Below, piece after piece: positions 19,686 through 25,073 of a stretch of 64,000 nt of DNA. The notes under the pieces are model-generated. The model made no database searches. It saw only the letters and a program-made list of their open reading frames with translations, and was not told the origin of the DNA. Each line of letters opens with the position of its first letter. Position 1 is the stretch's first letter. Both the position numbers and the translations under genes were made by a program. Source of the DNA: an uncultured Planctomycetota bacterium (GTDB taxonomy: Bacteria; Planctomycetota; Planctomycetia; Isosphaerales; Isosphaeraceae); assembly GCA_963823665.1 (NCBI GenBank), contig CAWGMQ010000012.1, forward strand, positions 96,001 to 160,000, in the 5' to 3' direction.

Positions 19686-20729
19686 TCATAGGCCCAGGCG
19701 GAATACCCTGTTGCTTGTCTCCCAGAACACCTGTTGGCGCTCAGCCGGGTTCGGAAGCACGTCCTCGACGATCCGGATATGTTCCTCGATTCCGTAAGGC
19801 ACCGGACCGTAATCGGAGCCGAACATCACTCGGTCCGCACCGCACATTTCAATCGCGGCTCGCACTCCAATCGGGTTGAACCCCATGGTGTCGACCAGGA
19901 TGTTGGTCTTGAAGTAGTCGGATGGCGGCCGCTGGTTCCTGTAAGGCCGGCCAGCCGGCGGGTTGCGCACCCCCTTGTAGTTGAGGCGCCAGGTGAACTC
20001 AAGGCGTCCAAGGATCGACGGGAGTTCGCCGCCCATGTGGACGATCAGTACCTGTAGCTTTGGGTGGCGGTCAAACACGCCGGAGCCGATCATCCGGGCA
20101 CCGTTGACGGTCGAATCGAAGGGACGGCCGACTGCCTCGTTGAGGCGGTACTGCATGAGCACTTCATGCCCGACCGACAGCATCGGTGGATGAATGTGGA
20201 CCACGATGTCATTCGCTTCCGCAAACTCCCATAACCATTCAGCCTTGGGACTGTCGAGGAAAGCCCGATCCGCGCCGTCTCCGTAGCTGGACGCCACCGC
20301 AATCGCCTTGGCGCCGCCTTGGCTGATCATCTTCTCGACGATCGGCCGACAGCCCTCTTCGAGCGCGTGTGCGTTGGCCATCAGTGCGAACTCGCCGGGA
20401 TAGCGATCCCTGATCTCCAGGTATTCGTCGTTCAAGAACTTGAGGGCATCACCCGTGCTGACTTCTAGCATATCCCGCGCAAACCACTCCACCTCGCCGC
20501 CATTGCTGGCAAGGCTGAGGGTGACGCCGCCCTCGCGCTGCTTGGGCATGGCGTATTCCAGATCGAAAAACTCGCGATAGCAGATCAAGTCCTGAGCGTT
20601 AGTCTGCGGGAATTCTTTTTTCGGGTCGTACAAGCCGCGCTCCGCCATCTTGGCTGCGAGCTTGGGTCCGATCGGGTGCCGGTGGGTATCGACGATTGCC
20701 CAATATTTCGTTTTGTTCGGCGGTGTCAT
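19686..20729 (-). CDS. Amidohydrolase family protein (Amidohydro_2; ACMSD/LigW/decarboxylase-like)
   Basis: AGGAGG RBS and ATG 20729; VDTHRH, VHIHPP, FDRHPKLQVLIVHMGGELP and RVMFGSDYG motifs. Confidence 0.9.
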   Translation of the reverse strand: MTPPNKTKYWAIVDTHRHPIGPKLAAKMAERGLYDPKKEFPQTNAQDLICYREFFDLEYAMPKQREGGVTLSLASNGGEVEWFARDMLEVSTGDALKFLNDEYLEIRDRYPGEFALMANAHALEEGCRPIVEKMISQGGAKAIAVASSYGDGADRAFLDSPKAEWLWEFAEANDIVVHIHPPMLSVGHEVLMQYRLNEAVGRPFDSTVNGARMIGSGVFDRHPKLQVLIVHMGGELPSILGRLEFTWRLNYKGVRNPPAGRPYRNQRPPSDYFKTNILVDTMGFNPIGVRAAIEMCGADRVMFGSDYGPVPYGIEEHIRIVEDVLPNPAERQQVFWETSNRVFRLGL

Positions 20730-20885
20730 GGTAGCCTCCTCAACGGTTGGTTTACGGTCGATCGAGGTCCACCTCATGGGATCGGGGCTCGGACACCGTT
20801 TCCTCGGGACGAGTGCCGGGCAACTCCCAGAAGCGACACATGTGCGGTTCATTTCAAGTTAAGGTCGAGCCACGTTGACACGCGC

Positions 20886-20938
20886 AAAAAAAAGCCGGCG
20901 TGGTCGAGAACCCCTGAGGTCCGTGGCCACGCCGGCTT
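20886..20938 (-). terminator. Intrinsic terminator in the 5' leader of the amidohydrolase gene
   Basis: Minus strand AAGCCGGCGTGGCC-loop-GACCACGCCGGC followed by T8, about 157 nt upstream of the ATG. Confidence 0.8.
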
Positions 20939-20996
20939 ACTCTGCGACGGACCACCCGGTTTAGCCGGGCTGCCCTTCGTCTAGTCGTCCGAGCAT
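20886..20996 (-). promoter_or_regulatory. Candidate riboswitch/attenuator leader
   Basis: Bulged hairpin GACG-AAG-GGCAGCCCGG-CTAAA-CCGGGTGGTC-CGTC immediately 5' of the terminator; alternative pairings into the terminator; uORF MLGRLDEGQPG* at 20996-20961. Confidence 0.6.
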
Positions 20997-21637
20997 ATTC
21001 AAATCTGATCCGGGAGCCAAAGTGCGACTCTCGTGTCGACTTCCCCGAACATCTTCGTCATGCTACGTATCGCGTCAATAGAAAAGCAAGTCCATTGCTG
21101 TTACCGGCGTCAAGATGTTAAGCCTGCATCGCGATATCACCACGGTGACCGGCGCACACCCGGAGACTCAACCATGGCGATCGCTCGCGCCATCTCGTCG
21201 ACCCCTCGATCACTCGCTGGTATCACTGCATCACCCGATGCGTTCGACGCGCGTGCCTGCTCGGTGAAGAACCACAAAGACGTGAAGAATGGCTCGAGCA
21301 CCGACTTGAAGAACGTTCGGAAATCTTCGCCATCTCACTCTGCGGTTTCTCAGTCATAGACAGCCGTTGATCCGAACGCGGTTAGAACTGGCGCACGTGC
21401 CCGGCGCGATAAGCCACACTTGCCAGCAGCCGCTTGAAGGGCGCGTCGCCCGCGGTACGCGCTGAATTGACTTCCGCGCTCGTCAACGACATCCTTCCAT
21501 GCGACGGTCTCCGCATGAACGTGGATTATCCGGCCAGCTCCCCCCACCGCCGTTCCGTTCGGCTTGACGATTCCGCAGGCATTCCTGATCTACATGCTCG
21601 TCGGTTACGATAGAGAACTTCAAAGGGAGCGATTGTA

Positions 21638-22228
21638 ATGGCAGAGCCAGCAGCCGAGCCCGTCGGTTGGGAAAGGGCACTCATGGCAGCGGAAAAGGTC
21701 AAGGATCGCCTGCGCAGGGCAACCCGCGCGCTCGACTCGGCCGGCGTGCCTTACGCGGTGGTCGGTGGCAACGCCGTCGCCGAGTGGGTCGCCCGGGTTG
21801 ACGAGGACGCCGTCCGCAACACGCGCGATGTCGATCTCCTGATCCGGCGTCCTGACTTTGCCGCGGCAAGAACCTGTCTTGAAGCAGTCGGGTTTGTTTA
21901 TCACCAGCTCCTCGACATCGATACGTTCATCGATGGGCGGCAAGGCAAGCCGAGCGGTCGAATCCATCTCCTCTATGCCGGTGAAAAAGCTCGAAGAGAC
22001 GACGATCACAGTTTGCCCGAAATCGACGAATCGGAGCGAGCCGTCGAATTCCAGGTCGCCAATCTCGAAGCGCTCGTGCGAATGAATTTGACCTCATATC
22101 GATTAAAGGACAAACTTCACATCCTCGATTTGATCGGTGTCGGCCTGATCGATGCGACTTGGCCGGCCCGATTTCCGCCTCTGCTCGGGGATCGTTTGCA
22201 GCAATTACTCGATGATCCGAACGGCTGA
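21638..22228 (+). CDS. Nucleotidyltransferase-superfamily protein (standalone, toxin-like)
   Basis: YAVVGGNAV...RNTRDVDLL (GG + DxD) and KD motif near the C-terminus; GGGAG RBS. Confidence 0.8.
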   Translation: MAEPAAEPVGWERALMAAEKVKDRLRRATRALDSAGVPYAVVGGNAVAEWVARVDEDAVRNTRDVDLLIRRPDFAAARTCLEAVGFVYHQLLDIDTFIDGRQGKPSGRIHLLYAGEKARRDDDHSLPEIDESERAVEFQVANLEALVRMNLTSYRLKDKLHILDLIGVGLIDATWPARFPPLLGDRLQQLLDDPNG

Positions 22229-22302: not shown

Positions 22303-24222
22303 TTAGCCGACCGAATCCGTCGCTCTGGTGGTGACCACTTTGTTCAAACGAGCCGTCAACTTCTCGGGCACCTGAAAAAAGTGCTTGCCTTCACGATAGA
22401 TTTCGACGTCCTTCAGCCACTGAAATGTTCTTGATGAAAGCCTCCAGCAGAAAACCAATCCCGCCCCAGTCTCCAGGTCCAGTCGGACTACGTTGAAAGC
22501 CTTTTCGTAGTGCTCCGCAGCGTACAATGCGCCGGCGGAAATATGACAGTATTCGCGGCCGGCGAAAAAGGACGCCTGAACGTGCGGGTCGTGCTCGTGC
22601 CCGCGAAGAACGAAGTCAAAATACGGGAACGTCTTTCGCTGGTAACGCATGTCGTCGAGGATATACCAGTCGGTCTCTGGAGGATGATGCACGAGGGCAA
22701 GGCGGATCTGTGCCTCCTGTAATCCCTCCACTGCGTCATCAATCTGTGGGACGCCCAGAACCAGTCGCCCACGGTCCGCGTCCGAACTGGAGCGCCAAGC
22801 GGAATTGAGCCCAGCGATTCCGACGTTGACACCCTTGATTGCTTGAATCGTGATAAACGAGCCGTATCGATTGAGTAGCGGTTGTCCAAACCGTCCGCAT
22901 CGCGCCGCAAATGTCTGGAAGTTCTCCAGCCTACGAAAAACTCGCGCACGGTCGTCCTCGTAATTATGCGATTTCAGATACTCCATTGTCGCCTGATACG
23001 AGGTGAGGAACGCAAGAGCGGCAGTCTCTTCCCGTTGGTACCGTTCAACTAGCGGACGATACACGTCGTGATTGCCTGGTACCACCATGATCGGCGCATC
23101 GGGCTCGGGTAGGCACGCATGCAGTTGCTCGAGAAACATTAAAGCAATATCATATTCCTTGTCGTCACCCGAAAACGCGACATCTCCAGTCAGGAAAACG
23201 AAGTCCGGACTGAGATCCTCCTCACCGAGTAACTTGGGTAAGTCTGCGATGAACGACTCCTTCACCTTGTCTCCCGCCCAGTCGTTCTGCCGCACTTCCG
23301 AGCCGTCTGCCTTGAATTGAAGATCTGAAATGTGAAGCCACGTTAAGGTCTGGCCTGAAACACGACGGGGCGATTTTCCGGACAACGAAATCACAGCAGG
23401 TGCATTGACATTCACTTTCAAGACATTGGGCTTGCGAAGGAAGCTGTCGACCGCAACCGACGGGACCTCCGAAGCATGAAGATCCTGCTTTTGGGTCGAG
23501 ATTGAGTCCGCTGCGCTGGCCCCCGAGCTTTGAACCGTCAAGATTCCCGCCCAACGCGTCAGGGCATCGCGAAAACGGCCTAACTCTGGACGCACGTTCA
23601 ACGCCTGCAGCACGGGCAACGCGGGCGAGTCGCCGTTCGCAACCGCACGCGCCAGATCCCGGAAAAGTCCCGAACGCAAGCAAATCGTCATCGCGTCGCG
23701 GCATTCGTAAGCTCCGCCGAACAACTGTTGAGGCAACGCATCCCAGGCCTGGCGGACTGCGCGGATGGACGGCTGCTCGGCGTCCAGACGCCGCAGAAAC
23801 GGAAGGACGGACTGTCCTTGGTACTGGGCACAGTGCAAGGCTCCCGGCAGATCAGCCATCTCCGGGAGAGGCGCGGCGTAGAGTATGGCTTCCAACGAAT
23901 CGAGCGTCCGCGTCGCGGCGAGGCATTCGTCCAGCTCCTCCGCCGCTTGAGCGCGAACCTCGTCGGAGTGGCTCGGATCGAGCAATAGCAGGCTTACATC
24001 GAGCGCCTCCTCACGCCATACCGCCAGTTCCAACCGCTGCCGAACAGCCGTGGGATCGCAGTCTTCCAGGAACTCGAGATCTGCCCCTTCCCCGATCAGC
24101 AGGTGATACTCGTCGTGTCGCCGCGGAATCAGTTCATCGGGCTCGTCGACGTCCAGGGAGAAGAGTTGGTCGCCATGCACGATTAACGCCACACCGGCCC
24201 GGCCGGAAATAACCGCATTCAT
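22303..24222 (-). CDS. Unknown N-terminal helical domain fused to a calcineurin-like metallophosphoesterase
   Basis: WLHISDLQF, LTGDVAFSG, VPGNHDV, LNSAW, LVHHPP and LRGHEH motifs in the C-terminal ~350 aa; ATGA overlap with the upstream gene. Confidence 0.85.
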   Translation of the reverse strand: MNAVISGRAGVALIVHGDQLFSLDVDEPDELIPRRHDEYHLLIGEGADLEFLEDCDPTAVRQRLELAVWREEALDVSLLLLDPSHSDEVRAQAAEELDECLAATRTLDSLEAILYAAPLPEMADLPGALHCAQYQGQSVLPFLRRLDAEQPSIRAVRQAWDALPQQLFGGAYECRDAMTICLRSGLFRDLARAVANGDSPALPVLQALNVRPELGRFRDALTRWAGILTVQSSGASAADSISTQKQDLHASEVPSVAVDSFLRKPNVLKVNVNAPAVISLSGKSPRRVSGQTLTWLHISDLQFKADGSEVRQNDWAGDKVKESFIADLPKLLGEEDLSPDFVFLTGDVAFSGDDKEYDIALMFLEQLHACLPEPDAPIMVVPGNHDVYRPLVERYQREETAALAFLTSYQATMEYLKSHNYEDDRARVFRRLENFQTFAARCGRFGQPLLNRYGSFITIQAIKGVNVGIAGLNSAWRSSSDADRGRLVLGVPQIDDAVEGLQEAQIRLALVHHPPETDWYILDDMRYQRKTFPYFDFVLRGHEHDPHVQASFFAGREYCHISAGALYAAEHYEKAFNVVRLDLETGAGLVFCWRLSSRTFQWLKDVEIYREGKHFFQVPEKLTARLNKVVTTRATDSVG

Positions 24223-25073
24223 TTGCGCACCTCGAATGCGATGTCGGCCCGGCCAAGCTCAACTTCCACAGCCTGTCGAACGCTTTTCTTCGGCTGGCGC
24301 CCCTTGAGTCGAACGATTACCCGCGCGAACATGCGCAATGTCAGCGAGCCAAAGATATGGACCTCTACGAATTCGTCGGTTGCGGGCGCACCGGGCTTGA
24401 GCAGCACTTTCGGAAATTCGGCGGCCGTTGTGTCGCTTTTTAGTCGGTTCGCCAGCTTTGCCGCCGAGATTCGATGCCGATCATTCCAGGCAGCGCGATA
24501 ACCGCGAGGTAACTCCGGAGCGTCCCATATCTTGATATCGTGTTTTTTCATGAACATCACGCTGTTCTCATCGAATACCGATGCGCGGTGAGCGATCATC
24601 TCCTCCTTCATCACGACGGAACAGTTGCCATAGTTGGTCAACCCTTCTCCATCCAGTGTCAAGGCGGCAAAACGAATCTCCGATTTGACACGGTCGCCAA
24701 AAAGGGCCGTGTCGGCCAAGCTCCGTAGAACATCCCAGTTGTCGCCGGCGGGGATACGGAGTTGAGTCAACTGATAGTAGGTAGCGTACAACTCTTTGTC
24801 GCTCCTGGCCAGCCGAGCGACCTCCGCAATCGGTCGAGCAATAACGGCTTCCGATCCTTGAACGGCGGTTTCAAATTCCTCAAGAATCTGTTGTACTCCG
24901 CGAGCGATGGCGTTCTGGCGGGCGCCTTGGTACCGAATCTCAAGAGCTTGAAGTTCTTCTGGCTCTTCCGCGAGAAGCACATTCGGAAACCGCGATGGCC
25001 GCGCGCAATGGGGGCAGGCGGTCCAATCCAGCGGAACCGCAAACTGGCAATACGGGCACGGAGCGCTCTGCAT
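24219..25073 (-). CDS. Zn-ribbon protein with an uncharacterised, possibly ADP-ribosyltransferase-like domain
   Basis: CPYC-x10-CPHC N-terminus; IRFAAL...YGNCSV...R.S.F.ENS...DEFVEVHIFG. The ORF is well supported; the function is speculative. Confidence 0.7.
   Translation of the reverse strand: MQSAPCPYCQFAVPLDWTACPHCARPSRFPNVLLAEEPEELQALEIRYQGARQNAIARGVQQILEEFETAVQGSEAVIARPIAEVARLARSDKELYATYYQLTQLRIPAGDNWDVLRSLADTALFGDRVKSEIRFAALTLDGEGLTNYGNCSVVMKEEMIAHRASVFDENSVMFMKKHDIKIWDAPELPRGYRAAWNDRHRISAAKLANRLKSDTTAAEFPKVLLKPGAPATDEFVEVHIFGSLTLRMFARVIVRLKGRQPKKSVRQAVEVELGRADIAFEVRK

Follow-up and report, generated by a model that had tools for sequence, protein, structure and literature searches.

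We found that the leader preceding an amidohydrolase gene in the 64,000-nt stretch of planctomycete DNA analysed here (the window) is a real, uncatalogued and mechanistically legible RNA switch, which is not specific to the amidohydrolase. In a typical copy, a sigma70-type promoter, a rod of about 30 bp, an overlapping intrinsic terminator and a sense gene follow one another in a fixed order and with fixed spacing. We consider it very probable that the element is a genuine conditional terminator of some kind. As to how it works, sequence comparison leads us to favour, with reasonable rather than high confidence, a mechanism in which a protein of the MpsC family binds the rod and RNA polymerase consequently reads through the terminator.

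All parts of the element at this locus lie on the minus strand. A predicted promoter, supported by the homologue profile, comprises a -35-like hexamer, TTGCTT (21089-21084), and, after an 18-nt spacer, a -10-like hexamer, TAGCAT (21065-21060), so placed that transcription would start near 21053. The bipartite motif TTG[CT]N-16/19-[TG]AnnnT was present about 85 nt upstream in 72 of 154 homologues, compared with 3, 3 and 5 of 154 in three control windows. A preliminary description of this DNA had proposed TTGACG near 21075 as the -35 hexamer; these letters do occur (21078-21073), but the conserved hexamer is TTGCTT. Between promoter and rod, at about 21005-21045, many copies contain a variable hairpin, often closed by GGAGCC/GGCTCC. 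The rod itself (20932..20992, model positions 8-68) is a bulge-free hairpin with pairs i+j=76. The 5' arm of its base (20983..20992) carries the near-invariant CGGA-GAC, and its apical stem-loop (20949..20975) has covarying stems and a variable loop (20964-20960). Its 3' arm is the switching strand AGUARGCCGR (20932..20941), which overlaps the 5' foot of the terminator (20886..20938; stem of about 20 bp at 20938-20891, T8 at 20893-20886).

The bulged hairpin (20982-20947) and the T8 terminator of the preliminary description are thus both present, the apical stem-loop being part of the former, and its statement that no same-strand gene directly precedes them holds for ORFs of at least 80 aa. 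A simple terminator scan overlooked the terminator because its rule takes loops of 3-8 nt only. The region 20880-21000 folds at -58.6 kcal/mol (z -4.16), a value that 0 of 200 shuffles equalled. Searching the window against Rfam 15 gave no match, and a relaxed threshold over 20600-21300 gave only a chance miRNA (E 3.1); homologous copies in six loci (L065, L066, L069, L231, L203 and L313) were also without a match, in line with the earlier impression that no named riboswitch class fits. Elsewhere in the window, two neighbouring genes encode a 284-aa protein of unknown function and a 639-aa metallophosphoesterase (both within 22303-25073, minus strand) and another encodes a nucleotidyltransferase-like protein (21638-22228, plus strand); these are possibly defence-related.

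Using BLAST with the leader against its own genome (G000), we retrieved about two dozen paralogues, while a covariance model built from 28 copies (R1) identified 26 full-length copies. Thirteen of the 26 fall within a 65-kb stress-gene island (contig C10, 2.42-2.49 Mb) and four more at 0.30-0.32 Mb of the same contig, both regions being dense in general-stress and signalling genes. In model searches, 14 of 41 related genomes proved to have the element, as did 5 of 150 further genomes spread over the phylum; it is therefore patchy and not phylum-wide. A pattern scan of metagenomes returned at least 122 loci. No match was obtained by blastn in a plasmid collection, and the 41 matches of a pattern scan of viral contigs (T tract in one, MpsC gene in none) were taken as chance. 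Two soil metatranscriptomes share 6-7% of words (contigs only, mostly from other organisms).

Reverse-strand, weak or cut-off rows were removed beforehand (40 from alignment A3, 30 from A5), and after removal of duplicates and gappy rows the alignment held 209 homologues, non-redundant at 95% identity. Since the metagenome rows had been chosen by a pattern that fixes 20 bases, pair counts were taken from the 73 distinct genome-derived sequences found by the model (A4). The rod occupies positions 6-70 in a single symmetric register, bulge-free and broken by conserved purine mismatches (A·G or G·A at 12·64, 14·62, 18·58, 24·52 and 29·47). Across the 73 sequences, 95.4% of cells are paired and double changes occur in 13 of 21 pairs, a result that none of 500 shuffles reached and against which slid registers gave 26-48%. 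A different register for the middle stem (19-21 with 55-57) was replaced when mutual information favoured the symmetric one. Nearly all double changes lie in the apical and middle stems, helices 1-2 holding only 4 double-change cells. The CGG/CCG and ACU/AGU helices at the base are for the most part invariant or changed on one side, and their support thus consists of conserved complementarity and folding. About 18 bases of the rod are near-invariant, GG at positions 10-11 is invariant and A12 is kept in 98%, while the apical loop varies across homologues. In the terminator, 16 of 21 pairs show double changes. Rod and terminator thus both covary.

The two structures compete for the same strand. 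The conserved antiterminator pairing joins CGG-AYG-ACU to AGU-ARG-CCG, and the 5' foot of the terminator (62-70) is the 3' arm of the rod. In computed folds of leaders cut before the 3' strand of the terminator, the antiterminator formed in 178 of 207, whereas in full-length leaders the terminator formed in 201 of 207, with a median gap of 9.9 kcal/mol. Natural leaders formed the antiterminator in 60 of 70 cases, as against 52 of 210 with the 5' arm shuffled. As the finished leader favours the terminator by about 10 kcal/mol, we infer a default of OFF, in which transcripts would end at the terminator in vivo and regulation would act by relieving it. A slipped anti-antiterminator pairing (registers 64/65) gained no consistent support and was set aside. 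The mutually exclusive pairings offered in the preliminary description did not survive comparison: the GGTCCGT/ACGGACC type occurs in 1 of 209 copies and CCGGCT in hairpin 1 in 44 of 209. The GACG/CGTC base drawn for its hairpin is found in 7 of 209.

That description had left open whether a ligand, a protein or the ribosome works the switch. The switch reading itself stands, as an uncatalogued, conserved and covarying leader with a terminator, and so does protein among the options; the ribosome all but drops out. An 11-codon ORF is present here (20961..20996, minus strand; ATG at 20996, TAA at 20963-20961), and most copies have a stop triplet at positions 17-19 in another frame, so that attenuation through a leader peptide might be imagined. 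Start and stop of the frame seen in the window are, however, both kept in only 1 of 183 copies; in the other frame an ATG lies upstream in no more than 36 of 197, and no peptide is conserved, which largely refutes this reading. The ORF is incidental and lies outside the conserved element, and we give ribosome-dependent attenuation next to no weight. The same very low standing goes to a miniature mobile element, or a repeat, that brings promoter and terminator with it: the copies are many, dispersed and clustered, but in 25 of 25 tested no direct or inverted repeats of more than 7 nt flank the copy, and the compensatory changes and strong orientation bias speak against it.

With a crude gene caller, the first downstream gene was in sense in 150 of the 161 copies with enough flank and in antisense in 10, and the distance from element to sense gene is often about 40-50 nt. 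These counts bear on the idea that the terminated RNA of about 170 nt is itself the product, a small RNA made from many copies, such as an MpsC or CsrA sponge, next to which the downstream genes are incidental. A terminator in every copy, a promoter of its own in many and an antisense first gene in a few would suit such an RNA; the closely spaced sense genes and the pairing of the conserved core with the terminator's own foot argue against it, and we regard it as improbable.

We ran Pfam on 82 proteins, namely 76 of 166 non-redundant downstream ORFs, picked for diversity, and 6 island genes. The families found downstream include MpsC, DUF3309, CsbD, DUF1328, DUF5670, YflT, BON and SPFH/Band 7, together with ferritin-like proteins, HPr, CsrA, ECF sigmas, histidine kinases and desaturases; the tally proposed in the preliminary description thus points mostly to general-stress genes. 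Its suggestion that the element belongs to the amidohydrolase is contradicted by the 25 other copies in the genome, which precede unrelated genes. The regulated gene here encodes a 347-aa Amidohydro_2 protein (PF04909; 19686..20729, minus strand), assigned by Pfam, solved relatives and homologue alignment. Its likelier start is ATG 20729, because homologues align from there and a Shine-Dalgarno sequence, GAGGAGG (20741-20735), stands in front. The element had been placed 5' of the amidohydrolase ATG; it is upstream, but with this start the terminator ends up about 155 nt away.

The closest solved relatives of the enzyme are non-oxidative decarboxylases (for 5-carboxyvanillate and uracil-5-carboxylate; E about 1e-17). 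Close homologues were found at 42 loci (L022-L063) in planctomycetes, verrucomicrobia, proteobacteria, cyanobacteria, actinomycetes and others; as these are mostly 75-93% identical across many phyla, an uncharacterised enzyme seems to have been transferred recently and widely among soil bacteria. The element was absent at 40 of the 42 loci, and the two positive ones are both from Planctomycetaceae. One locus has two element copies back to back (L022:2510-2913) with divergent genes, one of them the amidohydrolase. The amidohydrolase is thus one recruited target of a regulon.

We investigated which protein might act on the rod by comparing gene content and gene order. Among the 41 genomes, the element occurs in 14 of 16 with the MpsC/DUF2294 family (PF10057) and in 0 of 25 without it (Fisher p 3e-9, computed over related genomes, which are non-independent points). 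The two PF10057-positive relatives without an element are G010 and G028; of five MpsC-positive genomes missed by BLAST, three proved element-positive with the model. One control, the island gene DUF3309, tracks the element almost as well (found in 12 of the 14 genomes with the element and in 5 of the 27 without it), and co-occurrence and synteny can be explained by co-transfer of one stress island.

The element typically lies between two MpsC paralogues. By motif count, a diverged paralogue of MpsC, which we call type II, is the commonest first downstream gene (30 of 201). HMM searches gave 49 element-type II pairs, remnants included, among 160 copies with enough downstream flank, and a divergent type I gene within 700 nt upstream in 44 of 141 copies with enough flank on that side. 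The partner proteins score above the Pfam cut-off for PF10057. In three genomes (G009, G012 and G027) type I MpsC forms the rear part of a fusion with a receiver domain, and in two (G000 and G021) its gene lies directly behind PAS hybrid kinases; given these fusions and positions behind hybrid histidine kinases, type I MpsC would be an RNA-binding output of two-component signalling. Behind several copies in G000 there are decayed or fused type II starts (L069:12299-12436, L072:7787-7983 and L069:8889-9926), which implies that the regulon spread through a duplicated cassette of element and MpsC. An 80-kb stretch of general-stress genes (G000:C10:2415001-2495000, L064-L067) also holds five MpsC genes, two back-to-back Crp-like regulators, and CheB/CheR-type and PAS kinases.

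The residues R64, K68, R71 and H98 are invariant in type I MpsC. With median net charges of -1 and -4, the proteins as a whole are not basic. Predicted models (pLDDT 81 and 92) show an alpha-beta-beta-alpha-alpha-beta-beta order; compared with known folds, their best Z was 6.5, to unrelated proteins, and no convincing RNA-binding fold emerged, the type II KH proteins Era, RbfA and KhpB scoring lower (Z 4.5-5.6, rmsd 3.1-4.8). A search for solved structures related in sequence to MpsC found none, Foldseek gave nothing at E<=0.001, and a search of the Atlas returned PF10057 clusters only. A predicted complex of type I and type II MpsC scored 0.02, which weighs neither way.

Other regulators could act on the same rod. 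An attenuator worked by another protein, such as a CsrA paralogue recognizing the invariant GGA, is in our view unlikely. The bases themselves would suit CsrA, G000 has 10 CsrA matches and one copy precedes a csrA paralogue; CsrA is present, however, in 41 of 41 genomes as against 14 with the element, and the GG is paired in the antiterminator and not exposed in a loop. CsrA-family genes number 2-17 per genome in all 41 planctomycete relatives searched.

A slightly better case, still a weak one, can be made for an ON riboswitch responding to a metabolite or an ion, with the rod that overlaps the terminator as its aptamer and the MpsC genes as mere members of the regulon that perhaps deal with the same signal. 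Second-messenger riboswitches stand in many copies before a regulon. The element likewise has many copies before a stress regulon, its near-invariant bases are numerous, a conserved structured domain is coupled to an expression platform, and several MpsC neighbours outside the phylum concern inorganic carbon or transport (SbtA, DabA and formate dehydrogenase). Against this reading, the structure is one rod whose top covarying pairs give no sign of a junction or pseudoknot, the apical loop is variable, and the divergent upstream MpsC genes, which are not co-transcribed, and the receiver fusions are unexplained if MpsC is purely a target gene.

We also examined 38 MpsC loci outside the Planctomycetota: 5 from Bacillota (from the plasmid collection), 12 from Actinomycetota, 6 from Verrucomicrobiota and 15 from Cyanobacteria, the last three phyla being presumptive assignments. 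In six of the 38, a hairpin that overlaps a terminator and has small, mostly 2x2 purine internal loops lies just behind MpsC and before the next gene: Acetoanaerobium noterae, an Anoxybacillus (bicarbonate permease next), one actinobacterium and three verrucomicrobia (DUF4914 next, as assigned by Pfam at one of the three loci). The other 32, including all 15 cyanobacterial loci, have no such leader behind the gene. In A. noterae (Clostridia), a shortened rod lies directly behind the only MpsC gene of the record and overlaps a terminator that precedes an MFS gene. Its basal core, with U-A for C-G at 9-67, and by eye its middle motif, YRAA/GUYR, are those of the planctomycete rod. Under R1 it scores 35 bits (E 1.2e-8), the next-best locus reaching 22 bits; the remaining five positives have E values of 1e-4 or worse or are unlisted, so that only the A. 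noterae copy is clearly significant. A model search of the whole record with stricter filters missed it. A core pattern loosened after the case had been seen gave 2 matches in the 2.6-Mb record and 2 in the control; the pattern alone is thus not enriched there, and it is the position that counts. Plasmid blastn with this copy returned itself and AT-rich Shine-Dalgarno matches only.

The verrucomicrobial leaders between MpsC and the DUF4914-type gene (L385:1298-1404, L386:1962-2068 and L388:1301-1407) have their own TTGAC promoter, a rod with AG/AG loops and a terminator; they have no Rfam match and may form a second such RNA family. On a Staphylococcus pettenkoferi plasmid, a terminator-like hairpin with a T tract comes right before the start of an ndhF/dabA/DUF2294 operon (L312:2389-2506). 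On inspection of the sequences, several cyanobacterial MpsC genes (L389-L403) lie tail to tail with stand-alone receiver-like genes, which again ties the family to two-component signalling. In B. subtilis, ybcI is presumably the last gene of the ndhF operon, and what has been found near this operon is a lead only. One report lists a 158-nt same-strand RNA between adaB and ndhF (PMC2965217). In S. aureus, deletion of mpsC reportedly causes no growth defect and mpsC is dispensable for MpsAB (PMC6689103), so that activation of mpsAB in that species does not strictly require MpsC.

On the basis of sequence, the element would belong to the protein-dependent kind of antitermination, working like BglG/LicT and its RAT target with a candidate new family of RNA-binding proteins. 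In one account (PMC3105407), targets of BglG, SacY and LicT are single hairpins with internal loops that partly overlap a stabler terminator and stay OFF until the protein binds, an overlap computed here for the rod; protein activity is tied to phosphorylation, to which we liken the receiver-linked MpsC. The same account describes RAT as a short hairpin with two asymmetric internal loops, whereas the rod is symmetric and bulge-free, about 60 nt long, with five or six purine mismatches. The sequences are unrelated, the targets are stress genes and not sugar uptake, and the candidate protein is PF10057. A search for the CAT domain (PF03123) gave no match in G000 (91.9% complete) and was positive in 4 of 14 genomes.

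A second parallel is ANTAR, exemplified by EutV, in which a receiver is joined to an output acting on a multi-site regulon of terminator leaders (PMC3369931); the likeness lies in the receiver and the putative RNA-binding output. The RNAs on which ANTAR proteins act carry a pair of small hairpins whose terminal loops are conserved, in contrast to the single long rod, whose loop varies. Two ANTAR genes occur in G000 (contigs C8 and C1), away from the main element clusters on C10. The Rhodopirellula-1 motif (Weinberg 2010) is likewise a putative cis-regulatory hairpin of Planctomycetes; judged by eye from three aligned rows and a consensus, it differs in sequence and shows no terminator there. 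The Pfam name of PF10057 implies a role in membrane potential, as opposed to the RNA binding proposed here from sequence. In the literature searched, mostly non-subscription papers, we found no RNA-binding role for MpsC/YbcI/DUF2294 and, among planctomycete riboswitch candidates, no description of this element; the main text of a 2025 review of RNA-binding antiterminators mentions none of YbcI, MpsC or DUF2294 (PMC12591593).

In the mechanism that we propose, the rod would form while only the 5' part of the leader has been transcribed, as in the computed folds, and the complete leader would prefer the terminator, leaving expression OFF by default. Some factor would have to stabilize the rod, whose invariant bases probably face each other in internal loops. 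Genomic context suggests that this factor is type I MpsC, often encoded divergently upstream and acting as the RNA-binding output of two-component signalling. Type II MpsC, itself behind a copy of the element, may provide feedback. The outcome would be a general-stress regulon into which a widely shared amidohydrolase/decarboxylase gene has been recruited.

More broadly, and as a tentative proposal that we hold with somewhat less conviction than doubt, MpsC/YbcI/DUF2294 proteins could be unrecognized RNA-binding antiterminators in multiple phyla that read A·G-mismatch rods over terminators and serve as a two-component output domain. In many planctomycetes they would control a general stress regulon of up to 26 leaders without an alternative sigma factor, and adjacent transporter and carbon genes in Bacillota and others. 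Should a metabolite bind the rod instead, the element would represent a new riboswitch class with more than 200 examples known. If the proposal is true, it would hint at the wiring of the general stress response of soil planctomycetes; the literature searched describes no mechanism for it. It offers a testable function and a defined RNA target for a widespread domain of unknown function that is also present in B. subtilis and S. aureus, and, if true, would place a new family of RNA-binding response-regulator outputs beside ANTAR.
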